In this document: positions 4,911 through 45,602 of the stretch, in pieces
Layout of the letters: each line of letters begins with the position of its first letter
How positions within the stretch are numbered: position 1 is the first letter of the stretch
From: a candidate division FCPU426 bacterium
Lineage (GTDB): Bacteria > Oederibacteriota > Muellerivitia > Muellerivitales > Muellerivitaceae
Assembly: GCA_030041545.1 (NCBI GenBank)
Contig: JASHNQ010000059.1
Span: 16,222 to 80,221 of the forward strand
Direction: 5' to 3'
DNA: 64,000 nt
The notes under the pieces: generated by a model
The model's database searches: none
What the model saw: the letters and a program-made list of their open reading frames with translations, nothing else
What the model was told of the DNA's origin: nothing
Program-made: the position numbers and the translations under genes

Positions 4911-6829
4911 AAAAAATCATGACTGGCCGGGGAAAAGTCCTTTTCAAACTGGGGTTGTGCATTGGCCTAAAGGGCCAAGCGTGGTTGGCCTGTCATCGGC
5001 GAGTCCCTATTCGGGGCTCATTCCTCGCAATGACCGCATTTTTAGTTTTTTCAATTTTATGGGGGCAGGATTCGCCCACGCCTTCCCCCACATCGGCGAC
5101 GCCGGCGGCCGACCTCACCGGCGAATCCGCGCCGGCGACAACGGTTTCCGAGGCCCCCGCCACGCTTTCCAATCCCGAGGCCGTTCCTACGGAAGCCGGC
5201 CAATCCCCCTCCTCCGAACAAAAGCCGTCCCAAGGGGAGGGCGAAAAGGCGCCCGTTATCAGCCGCCCCACGGCCGTGCCCGAGTTCTCCCTGCCCGAAG
5301 TGGTGATCACGGGAGAGAATGAACTGACCATCAGCGCCCAACGGCTGGACCGCAAAGAAAACGACGTCACCTTGGGAAGCCACGACTTGACGGGCGTCGA
5401 CCGGGCCTTCAACGACCTTCCGGGGTTGAGCAAGACCTTCACGGCCCTTGCCACGGAGGAAGCGGGGCCTTCCCAAGATACCGCCTTGGTGCTGCACCTG
5501 GGCGGTGGGATCCCCGGCACCTACGGTGGATGGGGCCTTTTCGGGCAGGAATTCAAGGATATCCAGTACCTCCTGTCGGGGTTTGATTCCACCTGGGGCG
5601 GTGAAGCCACGGCTTCCGGGTTTGACGGGGACAAACGATATGGGTTCGGCGGCCAGATCAGCCTTTTCCCCCAAGCCCCCCAAAACCTGATTTTGTCGGG
5701 CGATTTCAAACGCCTGGACGCCGAACTGCCTTATCAAAACTCCACGCAGGAAACCCATGATGGGATCAACCTCAACCTGGAAGGGCATTGGAAGCTGTCG
5801 GACTTGACCCAGGCCCAACTGAACGTGACAAACCAGGACACCTACCTCGGTTATTGGGACCAATCGGCCCTTACCAACCAGACCCAGGAATGGGAAGGGC
5901 ACTTTAAATTGGTGGCCGACGGCCTGGGCGCCTTTTTCAACCGGTTCACGCTGGACACGGGACTAAGGCACGCCACGTCGGATTTCGCCGTTCCCGCGGC
6001 CAGCGACTACGACTGGGGCTGGCTGGGGGCCCAGGCCTACCTGAAAAGCGGGGAAAATTTGGGGTTGACCCTCAAGCTGCAGGCCCAGGCCGGCGACGGC
6101 CTCAACCTGCCCGCTAAGTTCTACCCGGAGGCCGACTTCATGTGGCGGGTTTTCGGCAACAGCCAGTTGAACCTTTACTGGAAGTCCGACCGATACGTGG
6201 ATAGCTTCAACAAAACTTTCATGGGGGAGGAACACGTCAGCCCGGTGGAAGGGTTCCCCTCGCCCACCGAAGTGACCGGGGAATGGGGTGGCCGGTTCAC
6301 GCAAAAGCTGGCGGAAGCCGTGTTGTTCTCCTTGTCCGCTTCCACGGCCCAAATCCAGGGTTACCACCAATGGACGGACATCAACCCGGCCAACCCCGTC
6401 TTCCTACAGGATTATTCCACCCTGGCCCAAGTGAAGATGAACAAGGCCGCGGCCAACCTTCAATGGAACTTCCAAAAAGACTGGCAGGCCTCTGCCACCT
6501 ATGAGTGGACCCAGGGATTGAACCAGGGCGGAACGCAAAATCTAACCAACCTCCCCGTGAACCAGGGCGTCCTTTCCCTTTACCGGGGCGATGAGACTTG
6601 GGAGGCGCGGTTGGAGCTTCAATTGGCCTCTCCGCGGCAGGCCTTCGCAACCCTCCCGGAAACACTTCCGGCTTACGCCACCCTGGGCCTTGACGCCACC
6701 TACCATTTGAGCAAGACTTTTTCCCTGTGGCTGAACGCGGACAACCTGTGGGGAGAAGCCTACGAGATCCAACCGGGTTATCTGGAACCCGAGTATCACA
6801 TCCGCGGTGGAGTGGAAGTCATCTTCTGA
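4907..6829 (+). CDS. outer-membrane beta-barrel protein, TonB-dependent-receptor-like C-terminus
   Basis: ATGA overlap with the TPR gene. Disordered S/P/T/A/E-rich N-terminus, a VVITG motif, alternating beta-strand pattern, C-terminal ...GGVEVIF ending in Phe. Sits just upstream of exbB-exbD-tonB. Confidence 0.55.
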   Translation: MKKIMTGRGKVLFKLGLCIGLKGQAWLACHRRVPIRGSFLAMTAFLVFSILWGQDSPTPSPTSATPAADLTGESAPATTVSEAPATLSNPEAVPTEAGQSPSSEQKPSQGEGEKAPVISRPTAVPEFSLPEVVITGENELTISAQRLDRKENDVTLGSHDLTGVDRAFNDLPGLSKTFTALATEEAGPSQDTALVLHLGGGIPGTYGGWGLFGQEFKDIQYLLSGFDSTWGGEATASGFDGDKRYGFGGQISLFPQAPQNLILSGDFKRLDAELPYQNSTQETHDGINLNLEGHWKLSDLTQAQLNVTNQDTYLGYWDQSALTNQTQEWEGHFKLVADGLGAFFNRFTLDTGLRHATSDFAVPAASDYDWGWLGAQAYLKSGENLGLTLKLQAQAGDGLNLPAKFYPEADFMWRVFGNSQLNLYWKSDRYVDSFNKTFMGEEHVSPVEGFPSPTEVTGEWGGRFTQKLAEAVLFSLSASTAQIQGYHQWTDINPANPVFLQDYSTLAQVKMNKAAANLQWNFQKDWQASATYEWTQGLNQGGTQNLTNLPVNQGVLSLYRGDETWEARLELQLASPRQAFATLPETLPAYATLGLDATYHLSKTFSLWLNADNLWGEAYEIQPGYLEPEYHIRGGVEVIF

Positions 6830-6854
6830 AGATCAATTCCGTTGGGAGGTTTCG

Positions 6855-7469
6855 ATGAGCCAGGATTTTTCGTTGATCGCCGTGATGATGAAAGGGGGAT
6901 GGACTATAGGAGTTTTGATCCTCATGTCCATCGTGGTCTTCGCGGTCCTTTGGGAGCGCTGGATCTATTTCAAGGCGAGATTCAAAGGCCGGGAGGAAGT
7001 CCTCGCCGACCTGGAGCCGTTCCTCAACAAGCGCAACTACCAGGAATGCATGGAGGCCTGCGACCGGAACGGGTCTTTCCTGGCCCGGATCATCCGGGCC
7101 GGCCTCAAGGCCCGTGCCGATAAGATGGATGTCGCCCAAGGCATGGAACGGGAGACCAAAATCGAGCTTTTAAAACTGGAGCAGCGGCTGCCCCTTTTGG
7201 CCACCATCGGCTCCATCGCCCCCTTTGTGGGCCTTTTTGGGACGGTGATCGGCATTATCCGGGCTTTCCGCGACCTGGCCCTGGCCAACGCCGGCGGCGC
7301 GGCCGTGGTGTCCCAGGGCATCGCGGAGGCCTTGATTGCCACCGCCTCGGGGCTTTTCGTGGCCATTACGGCGGTCTTCATCTACAACTGGTTCCAGGCC
7401 CGCTTGAATGCCATGGCCCAAGAGGCGGAAATCGTCATTTCGGAGATTTCCGAGCGCATAGAGCCTTAA
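6855..7469 (+). CDS. exbB: MotA/TolQ/ExbB proton-channel protein
   Basis: RBS GGGAGG. Three TM helices. ExbB/TolQ signature region ...IAPFVGLFGTVIGIIRAF... Confidence 0.85.
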   Translation: MSQDFSLIAVMMKGGWTIGVLILMSIVVFAVLWERWIYFKARFKGREEVLADLEPFLNKRNYQECMEACDRNGSFLARIIRAGLKARADKMDVAQGMERETKIELLKLEQRLPLLATIGSIAPFVGLFGTVIGIIRAFRDLALANAGGAAVVSQGIAEALIATASGLFVAITAVFIYNWFQARLNAMAQEAEIVISEISERIEP

Positions 7470-7556
7470 ATTTCACTGAGGAATTAGGTTTGGAGATAAG
7501 GTTAAAAAAAACTCCTAATTTCAAACCCTAACTCCTCACTCATCCCGGAGGAATGT

Positions 7557-7976
7557 ATGCAATCCCGCTTAAGACCCGCTACCAAACTTATGGCCGAAAT
7601 CAACATGGTGCCCTTTACGGACGTGGTGCTGGTGCTTTTGGTCATCTTTATGGTGACCACGCCTTTCCTTTTCCAAGGGGATTTCCAGGTGAAGTTGCCC
7701 AAGGTGGCGGCACCTTCGCCCAACCTGCCCGAGACCGTGACACTTACCATCACCCAAGGCGGTAAGGTCTACTTGAACGACAAGGAAACCTCCATGGACG
7801 AGTTGGCTGGGGTCCTGACCCAGATGATGCGCTCCAAGCCCGAGGCCCTGGTCATGATCAACGCCGACAAGAATGTTTCCCATGGAACTGTGGCGGAGGT
7901 CATGTCCAAAGCCTATTTGGCTGGCGTGACAAAAGTGGGGATCGCGGTGGAATTAGACAACAGCGATCCAAAATAA
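7557..7976 (+). CDS. exbD: ExbD/TolR biopolymer transport protein
   Basis: N-terminal EINMVPFTDVVLVLLVIFMV TM helix typical of ExbD/TolR. About 139 aa. Confidence 0.85.
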   Translation: MQSRLRPATKLMAEINMVPFTDVVLVLLVIFMVTTPFLFQGDFQVKLPKVAAPSPNLPETVTLTITQGGKVYLNDKETSMDELAGVLTQMMRSKPEALVMINADKNVSHGTVAEVMSKAYLAGVTKVGIAVELDNSDPK

Positions 7977-33644: not shown

Positions 33645-35030
33645 CTACGGCCCACTGCGCATTAAAACCATCTTCCTTAAGAATCGGCCATCCTTGGACA
33701 AAACGGCGGAATAAAGTCCAGGCGGCGCTTCCAGGCCCAGGCCTTCCAGCCCATCCCATGAAGCCCAGGCTTCCTTTTCCGTCGTGATTTTTTTATCGAA
33801 AACCGTTTGTATCAACTGGCCGTGGTTGTCCCAAATGCAGAGTTGGTACTCCCCTACCCCGTCCCGGAAGCCCATATAAATGTTGATGGGAAAAACACTG
33901 AAGACCAACGTTGAGGGAGCCCCCGCGGAAATGGGAATATTTTGGGCTGGAGAAGGACCGCCCACCGACAGGAAACTTCCACCGGTCGGTGTCAAAGAGG
34001 GCAAGGGTAGGGTGGGAAAGGCCGTGGGAATGGGCTTGCCCTTCCCCACCGGGGTTTGGCCGGAAAGCGCCGGCAAGGCCGCTTCCGTGCAGGGGCATCC
34101 ACCCTCCCCCAGCCATTGGGCCACGGCGGGGAAAAAGGCCCGGGTCACCTCCTTGGCCTCCCGCACGTGCTGGGCCAGGGAGGCGGTGGAGCGGATGTTT
34201 CCGGGCGCCCAGGCCGAATCGTCCCAAATGGGGGGGGGGTTCTCCGCCCCGCCGTACATCCCCGGCTGCCAAAGGGTCCACATGGTGGCATCCCAAACCA
34301 TGAAAAACCTGCCTCGGCCGCACAAACCGCTCGTCACGGCCCCGCCCAATTGGTTGCCCGACCAGCCGGAAACCATGGACCGGTCCGCTTGGTCGCTGAC
34401 CCAATCCTCCGATGTGTCCACGAAGTTGGTTCCTGTTAAATAGTCCAGCGGGATTCCTCCCACCATATTTCCATAAAATCGGCGGGGGCCCAGGCCGTTC
34501 CGGACCTTGTAAAAACCCTCGCCGGTGGTGCTGCTGTTGCCCCGGGGCGATGGCGGACAGGGATCATATCCCGGCTTGACCGCGTGGATTTCTTGGAGGA
34601 AGGCATAGACCCCCTCATCCCGGTCCGCGTAGGGGAAATATTCCGCGGCCAGGAAAAGTTTGCCGCAATGGTTGAGGAAGGAAACGGCCTTGGACCGCCA
34701 GCGGCCGTCGAAGTAATCCGCGGCCTGGGGCTGGCCGCTGCCGCACTCCCTGGAATCCCGGTCCACGAACCGCATATCCCATACCTGGTCGTAGGGGGCG
34801 CCCCAATCGTCGCTGCGCGGGTCGCGGTTCTTCCCGTCCACGTCCACGGTGGTCACGCGGTGGCCGGCGTTCTGGAGGATGGTCACGCATTCCAAAAGCG
34901 CGCCATTGGTGCCGTCGCCGCTATTGTAGTAAAAAAGGATGTTGTAGGCATGGGCCGTTAAAGGCCGGATAAAAAGGGATGAGGTCAAAAAGGTAAAAAG
35001 GAAAAAAAGGAATCGTGGCGGGAATTTCAT
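33645..35030 (-). CDS. secreted protein with a C-terminal FlgD-Ig/T9SS-like sorting domain
   Basis: Signal peptide MKFPPRFLFFLFTFLTSSLF. C-terminal block PINIYMGFRDGVGEYQLCIWDNHGQLIQTV...GLYSAVLSKDGRFLRKMVLMR. Confidence 0.5.
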   Translation of the reverse strand: MKFPPRFLFFLFTFLTSSLFIRPLTAHAYNILFYYNSGDGTNGALLECVTILQNAGHRVTTVDVDGKNRDPRSDDWGAPYDQVWDMRFVDRDSRECGSGQPQAADYFDGRWRSKAVSFLNHCGKLFLAAEYFPYADRDEGVYAFLQEIHAVKPGYDPCPPSPRGNSSTTGEGFYKVRNGLGPRRFYGNMVGGIPLDYLTGTNFVDTSEDWVSDQADRSMVSGWSGNQLGGAVTSGLCGRGRFFMVWDATMWTLWQPGMYGGAENPPPIWDDSAWAPGNIRSTASLAQHVREAKEVTRAFFPAVAQWLGEGGCPCTEAALPALSGQTPVGKGKPIPTAFPTLPLPSLTPTGGSFLSVGGPSPAQNIPISAGAPSTLVFSVFPINIYMGFRDGVGEYQLCIWDNHGQLIQTVFDKKITTEKEAWASWDGLEGLGLEAPPGLYSAVLSKDGRFLRKMVLMRSGP

Positions 35031-35109
35031 GACCAAGTCCACAGTTGTCCATTTGCAGTTGAGGGGCGTTTTTGGCTGCCGACTGTGGACTGTTAGCTGG
35101 CGACTGCCT

Positions 35110-35991
35110 TTAGTGGTAGTAATCGCCCTTGTCCACGAATTGGGATTTGGAGGCATCCCACTGGTAAACCGTGGTCATGCGCCGGAAGGGCCCGGCGAAG
35201 TCGTTGTCCGTCAGCTGGTAGCGTTCCTGGGCCTGCGTCTTCAAATCCGGCGGGTAAAGGACGTCGGTGGTGTTGATGATCTCCAGGGTGCCGTCGTGGT
35301 TCAGGTCCCGGTAAAGGGTGTAGCCCTCCAGCCACACGTTCAGCTCGAGTTCTTCCTTCACGTATTTTTGCACGTCCACCAGTTCGGGACGGTTGTAAAG
35401 CTCGTCCGGAACGCCCTGGAGGGCGTCGGTGACCAGCCGGTAAAAGGTCCTATCACAGCGGCTTCCCCCGCCGTAAGTGCCCACCTCGAAGAAAACGGGC
35501 ATTTCCTTGCCCAGGCTGACCAGGCGGGCGCAGCCGGGGTAACCTTGCCCGTGGAAGAGGTGCCGCCATTCCAGCCCGATTTTGATGTAGATCTCCGAGC
35601 TGCAGTGCCGGATGTCCCATTCGTCGGCGTAATCGGCCGTCAGGAAGGATTGTCCTTCGGCCTTGGAGTACCCCAGGAAGACCAGGGGAACCTCCGCTCC
35701 GTTGGCAGTGAGGGCCGTCAAGGGAATGCCGAACCTTGGGGCCAGCCCCGGGAGCAGCCGCCGCATGGCCACCAGGCGCCGGTGCCGCGAGGCGATGAAG
35801 TACACGTGAGGCTTGACCCGGATACCCCGGATGGCGCTTTGGAGGGATGGGTCCAGTTTGGCGTTGTGCCGGTCCACCCAAACCTGCGACATTTCCAAAC
35901 GGTCCATGGTCTCGTTTTCCGAAATCGCCCGCAAACCTCCGGGGAAAAACGCGCAGGCCAAGAGGATCGATAGGATGAGGGTTCTTTTCAT
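35110..35991 (-). CDS. hypothetical secreted protein
   Basis: Signal peptide MKRTLILSILLACAFFPGGLRA. No motif. Confidence 0.45.
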   Translation of the reverse strand: MKRTLILSILLACAFFPGGLRAISENETMDRLEMSQVWVDRHNAKLDPSLQSAIRGIRVKPHVYFIASRHRRLVAMRRLLPGLAPRFGIPLTALTANGAEVPLVFLGYSKAEGQSFLTADYADEWDIRHCSSEIYIKIGLEWRHLFHGQGYPGCARLVSLGKEMPVFFEVGTYGGGSRCDRTFYRLVTDALQGVPDELYNRPELVDVQKYVKEELELNVWLEGYTLYRDLNHDGTLEIINTTDVLYPPDLKTQAQERYQLTDNDFAGPFRRMTTVYQWDASKSQFVDKGDYYH

Positions 35992-35999
35992 GGACTCCT

Positions 36000-36217
36000 C
36001 CCAAAATTGTTTGAGGGACAATTATAAATGTAAAATGAACAAATAACGAAAAATAGTGAAATGGTTTTTGATGATTTTTCAGTACTGAAAATCTACAAAA
36101 ATGCCAATAAAGAGAATGTCCCTTTTTCAAAAGAACTTCCGGACGTCGTCTTAAACAATGTTACAATATGACTGTACTTATTAATAACTACATACAATTT
36201 ATAACATAGGCAAAGAC
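36000..36217 (+). promoter_or_regulatory. AT-rich leader/promoter region upstream of abiEi (left edge of the island)
   Basis: Sharp GC drop relative to both flanks. Direct TACAAT-containing repeats GTTACAATATGA and ATACAATTTATAA upstream of ATG 36218. Confidence 0.35.
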
Positions 36218-36820
36218 ATGAAAACAGCACCTAAAATCTCTATCCCCAAAACCCTTTTCCAAAAGGGCGTCCTGCGTCCCCGCGACATCCTCCAACAAGG
36301 GATCAGCCGGATGCGCCTGAAAAGGCTGGTGGACCAAGGCGTCCTAGTGCGTGAGGCGCGGGGGGTATACCGCGTTCCCGGCCATGAACCTTCCGAAAAG
36401 GAAAGCCTCGTCCAGGCCTGCGAAAGAGTGCCGGGCGGCATTCTTTGCCTGCTGACGGCGCTCCAATTCCATGGCATGACAACCCAATTCCCCCATGAAA
36501 TCTGGATGGCGATTGACGTGTGGGCCCGCAAGCCCCATGCGGAACATCTTCCCATCCGTTTTGTCCGTGCTTCCGGCAAATCCCTCGCTTCCGAGGTGGA
36601 GGAACACACCGTCCAAGGCGGGCGCATCCGGGTTTATAGCGCGGCGAAAACAGTTGCCGATTGCTTCAAGTACCGGAACAAGATCGGCCTGGACGTGGCG
36701 CTGGAAGCCCTGAAAGCCTTCCAAACCGGCCACAAAGGAAAGATGGATGATCTTTGGAGGAGCGCCCGCGTTTGCCGCGTGTCAAATATCATCCGGCCTT
36801 ATTTGGAGGCCCTGGCTTGA
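36218..36820 (+). CDS. abiEi: AbiEi family antitoxin (type IV TA / abortive infection)
   Basis: N-terminal wHTH region (GISRMRLKRLVDQGVLVREARGVYRV) and C-terminal conserved domain typical of AbiEi_4. Confidence 0.8.
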   Translation: MKTAPKISIPKTLFQKGVLRPRDILQQGISRMRLKRLVDQGVLVREARGVYRVPGHEPSEKESLVQACERVPGGILCLLTALQFHGMTTQFPHEIWMAIDVWARKPHAEHLPIRFVRASGKSLASEVEEHTVQGGRIRVYSAAKTVADCFKYRNKIGLDVALEALKAFQTGHKGKMDDLWRSARVCRVSNIIRPYLEALA

Positions 36821-37685
36821 AGAAAAAAAAAAGATCAAAAACCTCCCAGCTTCTGTGCGTCAGCGGCTCTATAACATCTCCAAAACTCGCAAGGAGGAAT
36901 TCGAATATGTCCTCACACGGTACGCCCTGGAAAGGTTCCTTTACCGCCTGGGCCGGTCAGTCCACCAAAAGAGGTTCGTTTTGAAAGGGGCCATGCTTTT
37001 CCAAGCCTGGTCACCCGAGATCCACCGTATGACCAGGGATTTGGACCTCCTGGATTCCAACAACCATGAAGCCCAAAAGGTCGTCCATGCTATCCGGGAA
37101 GTGTTGAATTCAAAAGTCCCAGATGACGGATTGGTTTTCAACGGTAAGTCGATTAAGTGGGGAGCCATCCGGCAGGGGCAAGCCTATCATGGGGTCCGCC
37201 TTCACTTTAAGGCCAAATTGACCCCGGCGGTCATCCCCCTCCAAGTAGATGTGGGTTTCGGCGACGCGATTGTGCCAAAGCCCAAGCGCATCCGTTACCC
37301 GACCCTTTTGGGTTTCCCATCCCCACATGTCCTGGCTTATGCCAAAGAAACCGTGGTCGCGGAAAAGCTCCATGCCATCGTGCTACTGGGCATGACGAAC
37401 AGCCGCTTGAAGGATTACTTCGACCTGTCGGTGCTCCTGAAAGGCGAAACCCTCGACGCCGACATGCTGGCCCAAGCGATTAAGGCAACGTTCAAGCGCC
37501 GCAGCATGCCCGTTCCCGCCGAACTGCCGATCGGTCTCACGGACGAATTCTCGCACGATCCATCGCAACAGGCGCTATGGCGTGCGTTCGTCAAGAGGAA
37601 CGGACTCGACCTCGAACCTTTGGCCGCCGTCGTGGAGCGACTGCGGACGGCCTTGGGACCGGCATTGAGCCGGGCCGGTCTATGA
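36747..37685 (+). CDS. abiEii: nucleotidyltransferase AbiEii/AbiGii toxin family protein
   Basis: NLPASVRQRLYN...YALERFLYRL N-terminal signature. DLD(L)LD NTase-like motif. First ATG overlaps abiEi by 74 nt; the true start may be a non-ATG codon nearer 36820. Confidence 0.8.
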   Translation: MIFGGAPAFAACQISSGLIWRPWLEEKKKIKNLPASVRQRLYNISKTRKEEFEYVLTRYALERFLYRLGRSVHQKRFVLKGAMLFQAWSPEIHRMTRDLDLLDSNNHEAQKVVHAIREVLNSKVPDDGLVFNGKSIKWGAIRQGQAYHGVRLHFKAKLTPAVIPLQVDVGFGDAIVPKPKRIRYPTLLGFPSPHVLAYAKETVVAEKLHAIVLLGMTNSRLKDYFDLSVLLKGETLDADMLAQAIKATFKRRSMPVPAELPIGLTDEFSHDPSQQALWRAFVKRNGLDLEPLAAVVERLRTALGPALSRAGL

Positions 37686-40600
37686 CAACCGCTTCTTTCG
37701 TATCCATTGACCTGGAAGTCGGCCGCGACAGCGGACGCATCCACCAGTTGGCTGGGGTACATAGCAATGGCATCGCCTCCCTTGCCTTTCCGCCCGGTAC
37801 GCTGTCTGATGCGCTTGATGCCTTGGATCGCCTCGCCGACGGCGCTACATTTGTTATCGGGCACAACCTGATCGCCTTCGACTTGCCGCAGTTGCGCGCG
37901 GCCCAGCCCAATCTGCGGCTACTGGATAAACCCGCGGTTGATACGCTACGCCTCAATCCCCTAGCCTTCCCGCGAAACCCCTACCACCACCTCGTCAAGC
38001 ACTACCAGGACGGCGCCTTGCTCGGCAACCGCCGCAATAATCCATTTTTGGACGCTGAACTCGCCTTGCAAGTCTTTGCCGACCAACACGCCAGCCTGAA
38101 AGCGATGCAGCACACCATGCCCGACTTGTTGCTCGCGTGGCATTGGCTGACAGCCCAGAATGACGGTGTTGGCGGATTTGATCGCTTCTTTACCGAAGTT
38201 CGCGGCACCGGCAAGCCGGATGCGGCACAGGTTGGGGCTGCATTTAGCCGTTTGCTGGACAACACGGCCTGCACACGAGCCAGTGCAAAAATCATCTCCG
38301 AAGCGGCGCAATCCCCCTGGTCTTTGGCCTATGCACTCGCCTGGATATCCGTGGCGGGGGGTAATTCGGTGGTGTCGCCGTGGGTGCGTCACCAGTTCCC
38401 TGAAACTGGACGGTTGATCCGGGCCCTGCGCGACACGCCCTGCGCCGATCCGGCCTGCGCCTGGTGCCGACGCGAACACGACTCTCTGGCCCAGTTGAAG
38501 CAGTGGTACGGCAAGGATTACGACTTTCGCTCCGAGCCGGTGGATAAGTCCAGCGGCCTGCCCTTGCAGCGGGTGATCGTCGAAGCGGCAATTCGCGGCG
38601 AGCACGCGTTAGGCATTTTGCCCACCGGCACCGGTAAGTCGCTGTGTTACCAGGTGCCCGCCCTGTCGCGTTTCGTGCGCACCGGAGCGTTGTCCATCGT
38701 CATCTCGCCATTGGTGGCGCTGATGGAAGACCAAGTAATGGGACTCCGCGAGCGCGGCATCGAAGGCTGCGCGGCGATCAACGGCCTGTTGTCCATGCCC
38801 GAGCGCGCGGACGTGCTGGACCGGGCACGCCTGGGTGATGTCGGCATCCTCCTCATCGCGCCGGAGCAGTTGCGCAACAAGAGCGTGCGAAAAGTTCTGG
38901 CACAGCGCGAGATCGGCGCTTGGATTTTCGACGAGGCCCACTGCCTGTCTAAGTGGGGACAGGATTTTCGCCCCGATTACCGTTATGTCGCCCGCTTCAT
39001 TCGTGAAAGCGCCGAGGCCAGTCCAAGCGGCGAACTGCCGCTGATCCAATGCCTGACCGCCACTGCCAAGCCCGAGGTCGTGGCCGACATCGTGGGCCAC
39101 TTCCGCGAAAGACTTGGTGTGGAGCTGCGCGTGTTCGACGGCGGATCGAAGCGTGACAACCTCGAATTCGATGTGATCGAAACCACCCCCGGCCAAAAAT
39201 TCGACCAAGTCGCCCACCTGATCGAGCGCGACTTGCCCGCCGGAATGTTCGGCGGGGCCATCGTTTACTGCGCCACGCGCAACCGGACGGAAGACCTGGC
39301 CGGTTTTCTGTGCGAAAAAGGGATGGCTGCCGCCCCTTACCACGCGAAATTGAAACCGGAAACCAAGAAGGAGACGCAGAAAGCATTCATTATGGGTACG
39401 CTACGCGTCATCGCGGCGACCAATGCTTTCGGCATGGGGATCGACAAGCCCGACGTGCGTCTTGTCGTCCATGCCGACATTCCCGGCTCGCTGGAAAATT
39501 ATTTGCAGGAGGCAGGCCGCGCCGGGCGTGACCGCGCACAGGCGCGCTGCGTGCTGCTCTACGCCCCCGATGACGTAGAGCGCCAGCACGGCATGTCGGC
39601 GGCCTCTCGCCTGTCGCGGCGCGACATCCAGAGCGTACTGCGCGCCTTGCGCCAGTTGCAGCGCAAGAAGGAACGCGATCAGGCGCTGGTCGCCACTGCC
39701 GGTGAAATCCTGAACGAGAATGAAGAAGGCGAGTTCAAACGCGACGGTGCCACCGACGACACCCGCGTGCGCACAGCCGTCGCGTGGCTGGAGGAAGCCG
39801 GATTGTTGCGCCGCGAGGAAAACACGGTTCAAATCTTCCCTTCGTCGCTCCGTGTCAAAAACCTGGCCGACGCTGAGCGCAAGCTGGCGGGCGTCGATGC
39901 CATATACCGCCAGAAATGCCTGGACCTGGTCCAAATCCTGTTGGCCGCCCCAGCGAATGAAGGACTGTCCACCGACGAACTAATGGCAGCCACCGGCCTT
40001 CATGCCGATGCCCTGCGCGAAACCCTGTTCCTTTTCGACCGCCTGGACATTGCCGGCAACGACACGGCGATGACCGCCTACGTCCACGTCGCGGTCGAAA
40101 ATTCGTCGAAGAAACGTTTTGACGAAGCCTGCGCGTTGGAGCAGGCCGTGATCGCCGCCCTACGGGAAGAAGCACCCGACCTCGGGGCGGGCGACGCCTC
40201 GCCGTTGCACCTGCGCCTGCTGGCCCAGCGGCTGAAAGACCAGGGCTTTCCTGCGCTGCCCCAACGGCTGCGCCAGGTCATCGCTGGGCTGGCGGGTGAC
40301 GGTCGCGACGGCGAGGATGGCAAGGGAAGCCTTACCTTGAAGCGCGGTGCCGATCCCGAGACGATTCATGTCACGCTCAACCGTCCATGGAACACTCTGG
40401 AAAAGATTGCCGAGCGTCGCCGCAGCGCCGCCCGAAGGCTGCTGGAGCATTGGCTGTCCGCCCTGCCGCAAGGTGCACGCGGCGTCGATCAACTGGCGGA
40501 AACCACGCTCGGCAAACTAACCGCCAGCGTCGCGGGCGATGCCATCCTCTCCGCCGAAACCCCGGACATACGCAAGCTAGTCGATCGGGCTCTGCTATGG

Positions 40601-42778
40601 CTGCACGAGCAGGAAGTGCTACGCCTGAACAAGGGGCTGGCCATCTTTCGCGCCGCAATGACTTTACATCTGGAACCCAACTGGAAGTTGCAATTTGAAA
40701 AAAACAACTACCAGCCACTGGCCATGCACTACGACGAACTGACCCGGCAAATCCACATCATGGCGGAATACGCCGAGCTTGGCGTCAAGAAAATGGCCGA
40801 TGCTCTGCGCCTGGCGGTGGACTATTTCCGCCTGTCACGCGAGGAGTTTTGTCGGCGATGGCTGCCGGGCCGCGAAGACGAACTAACCCGCCAGACCACG
40901 CCCCAGTCCTGGGACACCATCGTCGAAACCCTGTCCCGACCTCACCAACGCAGGATCGTCGCCGATGACCGGGAGGACACCAACGTGCTGGTGCTTGCCG
41001 GACCCGGCTCGGGCAAGACCCGCGTGCTCGTCCACCGCATCGCCTACCTAGTGCGTATACGCCGCGAAAACCCCCGGGCCATTCTGGCCCTGGCCTACAA
41101 CCGCCATGCGGCGCTGGAGATCCGCAAGCGATTGATAGAACTCATCGGCGGCGACGCACGCGGCGTCACTGTGCACACCTGCCACGGACTGGCCATGCGC
41201 CTGATGGGTGCGAGCTTTGCAAATCGCAGAGGCGAGGATGCCGACTTCGACGCCGTTCTGAAGGAGGCAACAGCCCTGCTCGAAGGCCACGGCTTGCCGC
41301 CGGAAGATGCCGACGTTCAGCGCGACCGCCTGCTGGCGGGTTTTCGCTGGATATTGGTGGACGAGTACCAGGATATCGACCCCGGCCAGTACGCGCTGAT
41401 CTCGGCGCTGGCTGGGCGCAAGCGCAACGACGAGGATGGACGCCTCAACCTGTTCGCGGTGGGCGATGACGATCAGAACATCTACGCTTTTGCGGGTGCC
41501 TCGGTAGAGTTCATCCGCCGCTTTACCGAGGACTACAAGGCCAAAACGGAACTCCTGGTCGAAAACTACCGCAGCACACGCCACATCATCGACGCCGCCA
41601 ACCGCGTGATAATCCGTGCTGCGTCGCGGATGAAGACTGAAGCGATCCGAGTAAACACCGCCCGCGCCCAATGCGCGCCTGGCGGCGATTGGCAACGGAT
41701 CGACCCTGTGGTACAGGGCCGCGTACAGATACTCCCCACTGGCAACAGCGCGCAACAGCAGGCACTGGCCATCTACACCGAACTGCGGCGCATGATGGCG
41801 CTTGGCCTCGATCCAGCCAAAACGGCGGTCATCGCCCGCCAGTGGAAATTCCTCGATCCCCTGCGCGCGGCGCTGGAAGCCGCCGATATCCCCGTCGCTA
41901 TGGCCGATGAAGAGGCGCCACTCCTGTGGCGTTTACGCGAAACGCAGGCGCTGCTGGCTTTTCTCGATGAACGGCAAACAGCTTCCGGCTCCCGGTTGCT
42001 CAAAGCGGATGACCTTCAATCCTGGCTGGCAACGCAGGACAGCACGGGCTGGTGGCCCATGCTCAGCGAAGCCATAGCCGCCTTTGCCGAGGACACCCAG
42101 GGTGCGGAAGTATTGCTTGCCTCCTTCCGCGACTGGTTGGCCGAATGGGGCCGCGCTAGCCGCCGCCTGCAAACCGGCATCCTGCTTCTGACCGCGCACC
42201 GCGCTAAAGGGCTGGAGTTCGACCATGTGTTCATTCTTGACGGCGAATGGCAGGCCGGCAAGAACGAGGATCAGGATGGGGCGCGACGCCTCTATTACGT
42301 CGCCATGACCCGCGCCCGCGCCACCCTGGCGCTGGCGCGCATGAATACGGGGAATGCCATGCTCGATGGCCTGGCTGATCATCCTGCCCTGTTGCGCCGT
42401 CCTCTAACGCAATGGTTGCCACCCCCCGGACCAATGGAACGCTATTATCGGATGCCCGGACTGGAAGAGATCAACCTCGGTTTCGCGGGTCGGCAGGACG
42501 TAGGCCACCGGGTGCACCGCGCCATCGCCAGCCTACGCATTGGTGATGCGCTGCGCTACGTCGGGGACGAACTGGGTCATCGGCTCGAAAACACGTCCGG
42601 CGTGACCGTCGGGCGCTTGTCGAAAAATTTCGAACCGCCGCCCGGATTGCGTTGCCAAGCGGCTCGGGTGCGCGCCATTCTGGTCTGGCGCAAATCTGAC
42701 AGCGCGCCGGAATATCAGGCCCAATGCCGCAGTGAAACTTGGGAAGTCGTTCTGCCGGAACTGGTTTTCGCACCTTGA
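37682..42778 (+). CDS. fusion protein: DnaQ-like 3'-5' exonuclease + RecQ-family helicase + UvrD/PcrA-family helicase (WRN-like with extra SF1 helicase)
   Basis: ATG overlaps the abiEii stop (ATGA at 37682-37685). Exo motifs FVSIDLEV and GHNLIAFDLPQL. RecQ motifs ILPTGTGKSLCYQVPAL, DEAHCLSKWGQDFRPDY, LTATA, HADIPGSLENYLQEAGRAGRD. UvrD motifs LAGPGSGKTRVLVHRIAYLV, ILVDEYQDIDP, VGDDDQNIYAFAG, ENYRST, LLTAHRAKGLEFDHVFI, YYVAMTRAR. Confidence 0.85.
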   Translation: MTTASFVSIDLEVGRDSGRIHQLAGVHSNGIASLAFPPGTLSDALDALDRLADGATFVIGHNLIAFDLPQLRAAQPNLRLLDKPAVDTLRLNPLAFPRNPYHHLVKHYQDGALLGNRRNNPFLDAELALQVFADQHASLKAMQHTMPDLLLAWHWLTAQNDGVGGFDRFFTEVRGTGKPDAAQVGAAFSRLLDNTACTRASAKIISEAAQSPWSLAYALAWISVAGGNSVVSPWVRHQFPETGRLIRALRDTPCADPACAWCRREHDSLAQLKQWYGKDYDFRSEPVDKSSGLPLQRVIVEAAIRGEHALGILPTGTGKSLCYQVPALSRFVRTGALSIVISPLVALMEDQVMGLRERGIEGCAAINGLLSMPERADVLDRARLGDVGILLIAPEQLRNKSVRKVLAQREIGAWIFDEAHCLSKWGQDFRPDYRYVARFIRESAEASPSGELPLIQCLTATAKPEVVADIVGHFRERLGVELRVFDGGSKRDNLEFDVIETTPGQKFDQVAHLIERDLPAGMFGGAIVYCATRNRTEDLAGFLCEKGMAAAPYHAKLKPETKKETQKAFIMGTLRVIAATNAFGMGIDKPDVRLVVHADIPGSLENYLQEAGRAGRDRAQARCVLLYAPDDVERQHGMSAASRLSRRDIQSVLRALRQLQRKKERDQALVATAGEILNENEEGEFKRDGATDDTRVRTAVAWLEEAGLLRREENTVQIFPSSLRVKNLADAERKLAGVDAIYRQKCLDLVQILLAAPANEGLSTDELMAATGLHADALRETLFLFDRLDIAGNDTAMTAYVHVAVENSSKKRFDEACALEQAVIAALREEAPDLGAGDASPLHLRLLAQRLKDQGFPALPQRLRQVIAGLAGDGRDGEDGKGSLTLKRGADPETIHVTLNRPWNTLEKIAERRRSAARRLLEHWLSALPQGARGVDQLAETTLGKLTASVAGDAILSAETPDIRKLVDRALLWLHEQEVLRLNKGLAIFRAAMTLHLEPNWKLQFEKNNYQPLAMHYDELTRQIHIMAEYAELGVKKMADALRLAVDYFRLSREEFCRRWLPGREDELTRQTTPQSWDTIVETLSRPHQRRIVADDREDTNVLVLAGPGSGKTRVLVHRIAYLVRIRRENPRAILALAYNRHAALEIRKRLIELIGGDARGVTVHTCHGLAMRLMGASFANRRGEDADFDAVLKEATALLEGHGLPPEDADVQRDRLLAGFRWILVDEYQDIDPGQYALISALAGRKRNDEDGRLNLFAVGDDDQNIYAFAGASVEFIRRFTEDYKAKTELLVENYRSTRHIIDAANRVIIRAASRMKTEAIRVNTARAQCAPGGDWQRIDPVVQGRVQILPTGNSAQQQALAIYTELRRMMALGLDPAKTAVIARQWKFLDPLRAALEAADIPVAMADEEAPLLWRLRETQALLAFLDERQTASGSRLLKADDLQSWLATQDSTGWWPMLSEAIAAFAEDTQGAEVLLASFRDWLAEWGRASRRLQTGILLLTAHRAKGLEFDHVFILDGEWQAGKNEDQDGARRLYYVAMTRARATLALARMNTGNAMLDGLADHPALLRRPLTQWLPPPGPMERYYRMPGLEEINLGFAGRQDVGHRVHRAIASLRIGDALRYVGDELGHRLENTSGVTVGRLSKNFEPPPGLRCQAARVRAILVWRKSDSAPEYQAQCRSETWEVVLPELVFAP

Positions 42779-42828
42779 TCGGCGGTGCACAAGTCGCACG
42801 AAATTAACCTGACTTTCGCAACTAAAGA

Positions 42829-42912
42829 GTGTGACCAAATAGGTTTTTTGGCATGCCCGTGGGGCGATTAAGGAAAAGCCAAGGATGAAAACGGCTAAAT
42901 ACTTTTTCATAA
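42829..42912 (-). pseudogene. orphan duplicate of the signal-peptide coding segment of the downstream Thr/Pro-rich protein gene
   Basis: About 84 nt with about 90% identity to 43651-43733. Encodes MKKYLAVFILGFSLIAPRACQKTYLVT against MKKYLAVFILGFSLTAPWACKRTYLVT. Downstream reading frame is antisense to the helicase 3' end. Confidence 0.45.
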
Positions 42913-42940
42913 TGGAATGGCCCTATCGGGAGGGCCTGGC

Positions 42941-43732
42941 TTATACGGAAATGGCGGAAGAACCCACCTGCCATTGGACCGGCAGGTTCATCAGTGGCAC
43001 GACGACGGCCACGTACCCGTACGGTATTAGGGGTGCGGGAGTCGAGGTTAGCTCAGAGTAAACCAAAAAAACACTAACTGTCACTTGGGTGGCGTTCCAA
43101 CAAACGCTCAAAACTCCGACGCCAGTGGTGGGGTTGGTCGGAGGCTCGTATACAAGAACCATTTGGGTGGAAAAATCCACGGCCGGGGGCGTGGAGGACC
43201 CATAAATCGACTGCCAGGCGGCTTGATTGGTAATGACCAGGGTCGTTCCTGAAACTGGTTGACCGGGCGCAATGGGGACAAAGTCACCGGCGGTGAGGGG
43301 GGCGTAAGGGACGTTCCAAGTGGGCATGGAGACCGACGTGAATCCGCAATTGGTGGCGATCGGGGTGAAGGTAACTGTTGGTGTGGAAGTCGTCGTAGGC
43401 GTATTGGTCCAAGTGGGGGTAGGGGTGGGTGGGACCTGGGTATTGGTCGGCGAGGGAGTCGGGGTGGCGGTGGAAGTAAAGCTTGGTGTAAAAGTGGAAA
43501 GGGTGGAAGGCGTAAAGGTGGGCGTGGAAGTGGGCGTGGGCGATGGCGCGGCCGTTATTGAAGTCGTCAGGAAATAATAAGTGTAAATGGGGGAAGGCGA
43601 AAAACTAGGCGTGGGCGATGGTGTGGCCGCCATTGAAGTCGGCGACAGGGGTGTGACCAAATAGGTTCTTTTGCATGCCCATGGTGCGGTTAAGGAAAAG
43701 CCAAGGATGAAGACGGCTAAATATTTTTTCAT
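42941..43732 (-). CDS. secreted Thr/Pro-rich repetitive protein
   Basis: Signal peptide, long TPTPT/STPT low-complexity linker, beta-rich C-terminal domain. Confidence 0.55.
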   Translation of the reverse strand: MKKYLAVFILGFSLTAPWACKRTYLVTPLSPTSMAATPSPTPSFSPSPIYTYYFLTTSITAAPSPTPTSTPTFTPSTLSTFTPSFTSTATPTPSPTNTQVPPTPTPTWTNTPTTTSTPTVTFTPIATNCGFTSVSMPTWNVPYAPLTAGDFVPIAPGQPVSGTTLVITNQAAWQSIYGSSTPPAVDFSTQMVLVYEPPTNPTTGVGVLSVCWNATQVTVSVFLVYSELTSTPAPLIPYGYVAVVVPLMNLPVQWQVGSSAISV

Positions 43733-44004
43733 ATCGGCATCCTGCGCTGAGACATACATTTTTAAGCTTATAGACGGTCGTGTCAAGTTCGGCCGCGATC
43801 CATGGAGTCCACGACCAGCTATCGAACCTAAAAAAACGCAATTTCAGGGCCTTTGTATCATTAAACTTCCATCGCTTTCGCTTACGCCTTTTCCGGCTGG
43901 AACCAGCTGAGTACACAAAGTAAGTCGAAAATGTCTTGAAAAAGAATTCGGTTTACTTCGTGGTCTTCGTGTACTTCGTGGTGAGAGAGGTTTTGAAACA
44001 GGTT

Positions 44005-44559: not shown

Positions 44560-45504
44560 TCAGCTTTCTCCGGCTGCCATTATTTTATCGATTTCATCCA
44601 CAGCCTTCCCCATGTTTTCGTAATCATCCAGGTTGATCCACCGAACTTTATGCTGGTGCTTGAACCATGTCCACTGGCGCTTGGCGTATTGGCGCGTGCG
44701 GCGGAACATCCTTTCCAAGGCCTCCCCTTCCCGCAGTTCCCCCTTTTGGAAGGCCAGGGCTTCGGCGTAGCCGATGGCGCCCCAAATCGGATGGTCCGGG
44801 GCCAGGCCCCTGCCGGAAAGCCTTTGGGCTTCCTCCAAAAGGCCGTTTTTCCACATGGATTCCACCCGGGCCCTCAACATCAAGTCCAGGCGGTCCCGGG
44901 AGCGCTCTAAACCCAAAAATAAAACCACTGGATCGCCCAAGGGCCGGTAACCCGCGTCCTCCGACCCCTTTTCGTAGGTCTTTTCCAAGGCCCGACAGAG
45001 CCGCTGGAGATCGTTGGAATGGAGCCTTCGGGCGGCCGCGGGATCCCTTTCCTCCAACCAGGCATGGGCCTTTTCATTTCCCAATTTCAGGACCTTCGCT
45101 AAAACCCAGGCCCGGACTTCCGGCAGGGGAGCCTTGCCTTGCGGGGGGCCTTCCACGAGGGCGCGCAGGTAAAAGCCCGATCCTCCCACGAGGATGAAGC
45201 GTTTCCCATGGTTTTGTCCTTCCTGGAGGACGCGGCTGGCCTCCCGTGCGAACTCCACGGCGTTCCAAGCTTTGCGGGGATCCCGCGTGCCCACCAGATG
45301 GTGCGGAATTTCCTTTTGCCATTCTTTTGGAGGCTGCGCCGTACCCACCTCCAAACCCCGGTAGACCTGGAAAGCATCCGCCGAAAGGATTTCGGCCTTC
45401 CATCTTTTGGCCAGGAGGAACGCCGCTTCCGATTTACCGACGCCGGTGGGCCCCACCAGGATGGGTAGTTTTAAGTTTTGAGTTCCGGGTTTTGAGTTTT
45501 TCAA
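44560..45504 (-). CDS. miaA: tRNA dimethylallyltransferase
   Basis: P-loop GPTGVGKS, typical MiaA length, position downstream of mutL. The first 13 codons overlap a repeat element, so the start is uncertain. Confidence 0.85.
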   Translation of the reverse strand: MKNSKPGTQNLKLPILVGPTGVGKSEAAFLLAKRWKAEILSADAFQVYRGLEVGTAQPPKEWQKEIPHHLVGTRDPRKAWNAVEFAREASRVLQEGQNHGKRFILVGGSGFYLRALVEGPPQGKAPLPEVRAWVLAKVLKLGNEKAHAWLEERDPAAARRLHSNDLQRLCRALEKTYEKGSEDAGYRPLGDPVVLFLGLERSRDRLDLMLRARVESMWKNGLLEEAQRLSGRGLAPDHPIWGAIGYAEALAFQKGELREGEALERMFRRTRQYAKRQWTWFKHQHKVRWINLDDYENMGKAVDEIDKIMAAGES

Positions 45505-45595
45505 GATGTATTCTAGGCCGGCAAAAATCCCTGGTTTTGAACCTTTGGTTCAAAACATACAATAACTCAAAACCCTGAACTCAAAACTTAAAACT
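45467..45595. repeat. intergenic inverted-repeat (MITE/REP-like) element (family copy 2) between mutL and miaA
   Basis: Terminal inverted repeats AGTTTTAAGTTTTGAGTTCCGGGTTTTGAGTT / AACTCAAAACCCTGAACTCAAAACTTAAAACT. Internal palindrome GGTTTTGAACC-TTT-GGTTCAAAAC. Confidence 0.5.
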
Positions 45596-45602
45596 GCCGT
45601 TC

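Follow-up and report, generated by a model that had tools for sequence, protein, structure and literature searches.

Tandem arrays of paralogous lipoprotein genes with conserved signal peptides are found in Borrelia and Mycoplasma. In the locus described here, from a member of candidate division FCPU426, an intact gene for a Pro/Thr-rich, lipoprotein-like protein is followed in the same orientation, 30 nt past its stop codon, by the ATG of an orphan copy of its own first 27 codons. Here the orphan is called copy A, its counterpart in the intact gene copy B, and the whole 64-kb stretch of DNA that was analysed the window (Table 1). As in the arrays, the signal peptide and lipobox form the most conserved segment among neighbouring family members on a soil-metagenome contig, L026, and by analogy 5' signal-peptide homology would be a natural substrate for recombination. 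Unlike the Borrelia and Mycoplasma arrays, the locus holds one intact gene and one apparent stump, with no sign of switching or cassette exchange.

In the dentilisin complex of Treponema denticola, PrcB, a lipoprotein of 23 kDa, binds PrtP and contributes to anchoring the complex (PMC8167434). Like PrcB (PF14343; NF033596), the product of the intact gene is a small lipoprotein-type protein with a C-terminal beta-rich domain; unlike PrcB, it has a long Pro/Thr linker and no direct Pfam or NCBIfam match. As no PrcA/PrtP-type protease gene lies beside the intact gene, whose neighbours are the NUDIX gene and a helicase gene, the function of PrcB is not transferable to it.

Copy A also resembles the 5' pseudogene stubs seen at foreign-DNA junctions, with which it shares a promoter-less start similar to that of an intact neighbour, an abrupt end, the lack of a domain or homologue, and decay. 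It is unlike them in that its state before the insertion was not recovered and the 'native' neighbour is itself missing from all relatives. The adjoining DNA encodes both domains of AbiE, a type IV toxin-antitoxin and abortive infection system, in an operon of overlapping genes, and unlike the canonical two-gene AbiE the operon includes a third, translationally coupled gene for a 1698-aa RecQ+UvrD helicase, as does that of another carrier, L020. In homology-facilitated illegitimate recombination, described for natural transformation, a one-sided homologous anchor is combined with an illegitimate join. The locus may be likened to such events, in that identity to other carriers is high from about 37345 (within AbiEii) to 42781, after which unmatched DNA (42779-42828) abuts a truncated resident gene, and in that there is no integrase or target duplication while resident DNA would have been lost, a likeness that we infer in its entirety.

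A repeated signal-peptide segment beside the helicase gene

A repeat search of the window returned a direct repeat of 90 nt, 42829-42918 against 43651-43740, with 89% identity and a spacing of 822 nt. In a MAFFT alignment the block of identity runs from the minus-strand ATG of both copies through codon 27, and counted by hand from the ATGs, 74 of 81 nt (91%) and 23 of 27 residues are identical; three of the seven substitutions are synonymous, and copy A is distinguished by I15, R18, Q21 and K22. The 27-codon repeat of about 90% nucleotide identity described in the first-pass annotation is thus real, although its starts, given there as 42912 and 43733, belong at the ATGs 42910-42908 and 43732-43730, and the gap between the helicase stop codon (42776-42778) and the repeat is 50 nt, not 52. 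It was also correct that upstream promoter sequence is not common to the two copies, as identity falls to background within about 8 nt 5' of the ATG; it does so again straight after codon 27. The longest exact word that the copies share is 22 nt. With up to three mismatches allowed, a 44-nt probe matches only copies A and B within the 64-kb window, 0 of 100 dinucleotide shuffles give any match to it, and neither the probe nor tblastn with 24 family proteins reveals a further copy in the 64 kb. Beyond the window, the 22-nt word has 0 matches in metagenome contigs, scanning such contigs for a protein pattern turned up 0 relatives, and a signal-peptide alignment searched against 5.8e9 proteins yielded no candidate.

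No Shine-Dalgarno sequence (AGGA/GGAGG) precedes the ATG of copy A, no promoter-like match was found there, and the sigma-70-like promoter match of the intact gene is not duplicated. The lipobox of copy A is APRAC, with Arg at -2, versus an uncharged residue at this position in 15 of 15 aligned family members. There is no terminator-like site in the spacer that separates copy A from the intact gene. On the other side, the nucleotide match to other carriers of the helicase takes in just the first 3 nt of the spacer next to the helicase gene, and local alignments of this spacer with the DNA 3' of the helicase in five other carriers score no higher than shuffles. Since all 15 aligned family members are Pro/Thr-rich past the Cys region and the continuation of copy A is not, the break is placed at about 42828/42829. 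The earlier claim that the body of the copy is replaced by sequence antisense to the helicase therefore holds further on but not directly, as the unrelated 50 nt come first. A search with Rfam over 35.9-44.2 kb gave no match, and the RNA fold of the junction has z = -0.6.

These data support copy A as a 5' gene fragment without function that belongs to the family of its intact neighbour. It resembles the adjacent intact 5' end in the same orientation (89% over 90 nt), and the rest of the gene is missing: the 3' part, which had been suggested to lie near 36.0 kb, was found neither there nor elsewhere in the window by tblastn with the 24 family proteins, whose only match is 42944-43372. An intact version in the orthologous place was seen in none of 16 FCPU426 loci, and the metagenome and protein searches gave no close relative.

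Table 1. Features around copy A in the window (nucleotide positions of the window; strand left empty for regions)
Feature	Position	Strand	Remarks
Lineage-specific segment	36026-44004		missing from 16/16 relatives; left edge about 36.02-36.07 kb, in the g303 promoter region; right edge, NUDIX stop
AbiEi and AbiEii	36218-37685	+	AbiEi 36218-36820; AbiEii ORF 36747-37685, start uncertain
RecQ+UvrD fusion helicase, 1698 aa	37682-42778	+	ATGA overlap with AbiEii stop
ORF of 125 aa beginning at copy A	42533-42910	-	judged spurious past codon 27
Spacer between helicase stop and copy A, 50 nt	42779-42828		in the frame of copy A reads LFSCESQVNFVRLVHRRS, not Pro/Thr-rich
Copy A, orphan first 27 codons	42830-42910	-	MKKYLAVFILGFSLIAPRACQKTYLVT; lipoprotein-type signal peptide; alignment, probe
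Spacer between copy A and intact gene, 30 nt	42911-42940	-	6-bp hairpin 42919-42924 / 42931-42936, no U-tract
Intact Pro/Thr-rich gene, 263 aa	42941-43732	-	signal peptide and Cys20, Pro/Thr linker about 28-125, C-terminal domain
Copy B, first 27 codons of intact gene	43652-43732	-	MKKYLAVFILGFSLTAPWACKRTYLVT; alignment, probe
Sigma-70-like promoter match	43758-43786	-	TTGACA-17-AAAAAT, 26 nt 5' of the intact-gene ATG; consensus match only

The intact gene and its lipoprotein-like family

The 263-aa protein (AF2 pLDDT 78) and 14 relatives have no Pfam or NCBIfam match at E<=1, and against 5.8e9 proteins the full sequence of the 263-aa protein finds low-complexity Pro/Thr matches only. Exact look-ups in the contig index left the Pro/Thr-rich protein, the 125-aa ORF, AbiEi, the product of g303 (a gene beyond the AbiE genes) and the helicase (P0003) all unmatched; only MutL was matched, on a contig of GCA_030051685.1 that is 3.1 kb long and breaks off within MiaA. 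The proteins predicted for the 104-kb source contig include the helicase, AbiEi, NUDIX and g303 products but not that of the intact gene.

An exhaustive search with the C-terminal 143 residues recovered 24 distant homologues of 29-49% identity. The members have in common an N-terminus that is first basic and then hydrophobic, a Cys at about residue 20 that is invariant and often part of 'APWAC', a Pro/Thr linker, and a domain of about 110 aa with the motifs ADWQxxYG, PPVDFxxQM, SVC and VPxSNLPVVW; in the alignment, Cys20, Cys129, W173, M191, C211, P251 and W254 are invariant. In the window the corresponding PrcB_C-like domain (about 135 aa) is encoded at 42944-43372. With its MKK start, hydrophobic core and Cys20, a Cys invariant in 15 members, the product is lipoprotein-like by sequence and a putative substrate of signal peptidase II; the residues at -3 and -2 of the APWAC lipobox (P-W) are non-canonical. 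The family profile aligns to a protein, P0140 (hhalign probability 94.6%, E=6.7e-8), that matches Pfam PrcB_C (E=4.5e-16) as well as the NCBIfam model 'dentilisin complex subunit PrcB', and through P0140 the family domain appears distantly linked to PrcB_C.

On the soil-metagenome contig L026 (also L027 and L028), three members stand head to tail (6001-6786, 6794-7330 and 7327-7935), the first two 7 nt apart and the next overlapping by 4 nt; in this array, the only one observed for the family, the genes are thus closer together than copy A and the intact gene. All three start ...APWACKPYP(L/I)LP, and their first 90 nt are 65-70% identical versus 46-60% elsewhere. Three of the four family contexts examined are single genes; tandem arrays in which the signal peptide is best conserved thus occur in the family and are not the rule. 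The second and third L026 members are near-identical over a stretch that begins at the lipobox and ends ~100 nt into the linker, with 3' ends at ~46%, a pattern that looks like a gene-conversion tract. According to the first-pass annotation, the tandem-remnant reading would be undone if the short copy began a genuine gene of a family with a conserved signal peptide; such a family does exist, but copy A starts no intact gene, and neither the Pro/Thr-rich gene nor its signal peptide has a close relative among the 5.8e9 proteins or the metagenome contigs.

Within the Pro/Thr linker, a segment (43509-43641) contains an internal 46-nt direct repeat (43521-43566 against 43596-43641, 80%), and local duplication seems to have lengthened the linker. 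The heptamer CTTCGTG occurs three times with a 9-nt period (43956, 43965 and 43974) 3' of the NUDIX stop codon, about 225 nt upstream of the Pro/Thr-rich gene, and may bind a regulator. Neither base composition nor codon usage discriminated between a native and a foreign origin of the Pro/Thr-rich gene.

The AbiE/helicase module within a lineage-specific block

Both AbiE proteins are confirmed by Pfam (AbiEi, PF13338, E=1.9e-12; AbiEii, PF08843, E=1.4e-43) and by PADLOC (E=5.7e-76 and E=7.1e-100, respectively). The same AbiEi-AbiEii-helicase operon, ATGA coupling included, is found in L020, where 4548-11094 matches 36218-42781 of the window with AbiEi at 50% and AbiEii at 55% amino acid identity. 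Nucleotide identity to L020 is 46-66% over 36218-37344 and about 81% from 37345 through the helicase, which indicates that recent sharing concerns the final third of AbiEii together with the helicase. The step at about 37345 suggests a recombination breakpoint inside AbiEii and a mosaic module. The helicase is 84% identical in amino acid sequence to homologues whose named relatives are Betaproteobacteria, with a conserved C-terminus and 100% coverage; its closest named homologues, also from Betaproteobacteria, are 79-82% identical. In nucleotide sequence it is about 82% identical to GC-rich carrier contigs, and this homology ends at 42781, 3 nt past the helicase stop codon. The helicase also occurs without AbiE in L024, and on proteobacterial megaplasmids at about 68% nucleotide identity. 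Based on these sequence relationships, it was probably transferred across phyla into candidate division FCPU426.

The 5' side of the module has features of its own. A run of about 11 A follows directly on the AbiEi stop codon (36821-36833). AbiEii has no canonical start at the 4-nt-overlap position used in L020, its only in-frame ATG being at 36747, in a 74-nt overlap with AbiEi; this could reflect start-codon ambiguity, slippage or a homopolymer error. The spacer at 36022-36217 is 28% GC and contains an overlapping AT-rich palindrome, 36148-36217, directly 5' of AbiEi, which may be an autoregulatory operator or promoter.

Scanning with MiaA yielded 18 loci, of which 17 are syntenic and belong to one and the same uncultured lineage, several being labelled candidate division FCPU426; 16 were informative. 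The order MutL-MiaA-NUDIX is kept among these relatives. In the four closest (L002, L003, L004 and L006) the NUDIX gene is followed, after about 50-180 nt, by g303-g503-g402, and in the other twelve directly by g402. Thus none of the 16 informative loci has a gene between NUDIX and the next conserved gene, nor a family member there, and the intact tandem pair that the first-pass annotation had predicted for relatives free of the island was not encountered. The match to L002 ends on one side with the stop codon of NUDIX (44003) and on the other at about 36017, just upstream of g303, whose true start is MKRTLILS with its ATG at 35991. With nothing in this place in 16 of 16 relatives, the whole of about 36.03-44.0 kb is lineage-specific, the Pro/Thr-rich gene and its 272-nt upstream region included; it contains AbiEi, AbiEii, the helicase and the lipoprotein gene only. 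The right boundary of the insertion had been put at about 42.83 kb; homology to other AbiE/helicase modules indeed ends close by, at 42781, but relative to the FCPU426 loci the edge is the NUDIX stop at about 44.0 kb. Copy A is therefore an internal seam of a composite lineage-specific block and not the outer edge of an island.

No mobility gene, tRNA or flanking repeat accompanies the block, the nearest tRNA being at 20.6 kb of the window. An attachment-site or target-duplication reading of the A/B repeats was rejected because they flank just the body of the Pro/Thr-rich gene and not the AbiE/helicase DNA; flanking direct repeats with an integrase or tRNA, as at att-type sites, were not found. 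The genes g303 and g503 (33645-35991) are present in only 4 of the 16 informative FCPU426 loci, and as NUDIX leads directly to g402 in the other twelve, the spacer past NUDIX is a site of recurrent gene gain or loss. On the far side of MiaA, the MutL-MiaA spacer contains a 38-nt inverted repeat (45464-45501 / 45561-45598, 92% complementary, 59-nt loop) that reaches into the annotated MiaA start.

Origin and meaning of copy A

We favour, with a probability of about 0.62, the explanation that copy A is what remains, as a dead 5' stump, of a second lipoprotein gene of the PrcB_C-like kind, a tandem paralogue just downstream of the intact gene. The paralogue would have lost its body where it was joined to helicase DNA of horizontal origin, so that its ATG, its signal peptide, its lipobox Cys and a further six codons are left, followed by 50 nt of foreign or filler DNA and then by the convergent 3' end of the helicase gene. 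The stump, with no promoter of its own, would be transcribed only when transcription of the intact gene runs on into it, and probably no useful product comes from it. The likely route, which we infer from one comparison, that with L020, would be one-sided homologous recombination, in which helicase DNA was anchored in a resident AbiEii by a crossover near 37345 and was joined illegitimately inside the paralogue, deleting all DNA between the paralogue and the AbiEii crossover. Such a route would account for the lack of an integrase, of a target duplication and of a 3' remnant. As no relative has them, the tandem lipoprotein genes would themselves be an earlier gain in this lineage.

Several lines of evidence argue for the stump. 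Similarity starts within about 8 nt of the ATG, as expected of paralogues that have diverged; a random segmental duplication would be unlikely to start there. The family forms tight tandem arrays with the N-terminus best conserved, as on L026, and copy A is co-oriented with the intact gene 30 nt past its stop codon with no terminator between. The Arg at -2 of the lipobox and the missing Shine-Dalgarno sequence are signs of decay. The break at 42828/42829 lies near the end of foreign homology, about 50 nt away; the helicase appears foreign and is missing from the locus in 16 FCPU426 genomes; and identity steps up inside AbiEii at about 37345. Against the stump stands the fact that three of the four family contexts are single genes. 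Given that no genome with an intact pair was found, nor anything closely related to the Pro/Thr-rich gene or its signal peptide, the full-length second gene is deduced, not seen. The remnant of a tandem paralogue proposed in the first-pass annotation thus survives as a same-family 5' fragment that abuts helicase DNA, without its intact pair.

As the signal-peptide regions of the two copies are more alike (91% of nucleotides) than those of the tandem L026 members (65-70%), it is possible that only the 5' end was duplicated, locally and recently. A short segment of the start of the intact gene would then have been copied, as filler or by slippage, during an illegitimate join of the helicase DNA, and a complete second gene would never have existed; the lack of a 3' remnant in the window and of an intact pair in any relative would agree with this. 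However, the 5' limit of similarity is the start codon, whereas a random copy rarely begins <=8 nt from an ATG, copy A lies past the stop codon at the spacing of a tandem gene, and seven substitutions, three of them synonymous, imply some age. We regard such a duplication as unlikely.

The junction that produced the stump could also predate its arrival, if it arose in some other genome and the 8 kb was then transferred as a whole. If 36.03-44.0 kb was acquired in one transfer, junction included, the junction would be uninformative on insertion here. The entire block is missing from the 16 relatives and sits in one intergenic spacer, and the Pro/Thr-rich gene has a GC3 of 0.61, below the 0.68-0.81 of host genes, as might be expected of a single arrival. 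Yet the block is mixed in composition and phylogeny: the helicase is about 82% identical in nucleotides to GC-rich contigs and its named protein relatives are from Betaproteobacteria, the same carrier shares just ~50-55% amino acid identity with AbiEi and the 5' part of AbiEii, and the Pro/Thr-rich gene is without a close relative. Given this, and the lack of a mobility gene, tRNA or flanking repeat, a ready-made arrival seems decidedly improbable.

It is very improbable that copy A starts a working gene, for a 125-aa lipoprotein overlapping the helicase tail or for a short secreted peptide, even though its ATG, hydrophobic core and Cys are kept and 125 codons are open. The frame is codon for codon antisense to the helicase, a GC-rich gene in whose in-register antisense stops are rare by codon bias (they arise from 18 of 1699 sense codons), and the corresponding antisense frame is also open in L020, a helicase carrier without the signal peptide. 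Moreover, the C-terminus of the helicase is conserved to its end, and the 125-aa ORF has no Pfam domain and no homologue in protein collections. The ORF past codon 27 is therefore a by-product, and the Arg in the lipobox, the missing Shine-Dalgarno sequence and the lack of a promoter match also speak against expression of copy A. It is more doubtful still that the stump is kept for a use, either as a signal-peptide recombination handle for swapping mature lipoprotein domains behind the one promoter and signal peptide of the intact gene, in the manner of cassette-type surface variation, or as part of a read-through transcript that would be antisense to the helicase 3' end. A chimeric assembly join in the repeated signal-peptide sequence can be dismissed as barely credible, despite the metagenome-assembled source contig, because the longest shared exact word is 22 nt and assembler k-mers are normally longer, even a chimera would call for a third copy of the signal peptide adjoining the helicase, and both flanks of the block join syntenic genes cleanly.

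The stump is of little importance in itself, as a pseudogene fragment of a kind often left where foreign DNA meets resident DNA. Its value is as a marker of a seam, which together with the identity step in AbiEii brackets the latest-acquired piece, at about 37.35-42.83 kb, in the larger 8-kb block. The analysis also brought to light a gene, missed in annotation, from a small PrcB_C-like family of lipoproteins for which Pfam and NCBIfam offer no model and whose 'APWAC' lipobox is unusual, a conserved operon of AbiEi, AbiEii and a giant helicase, and a probable cross-phylum transfer of that helicase to candidate division FCPU426.
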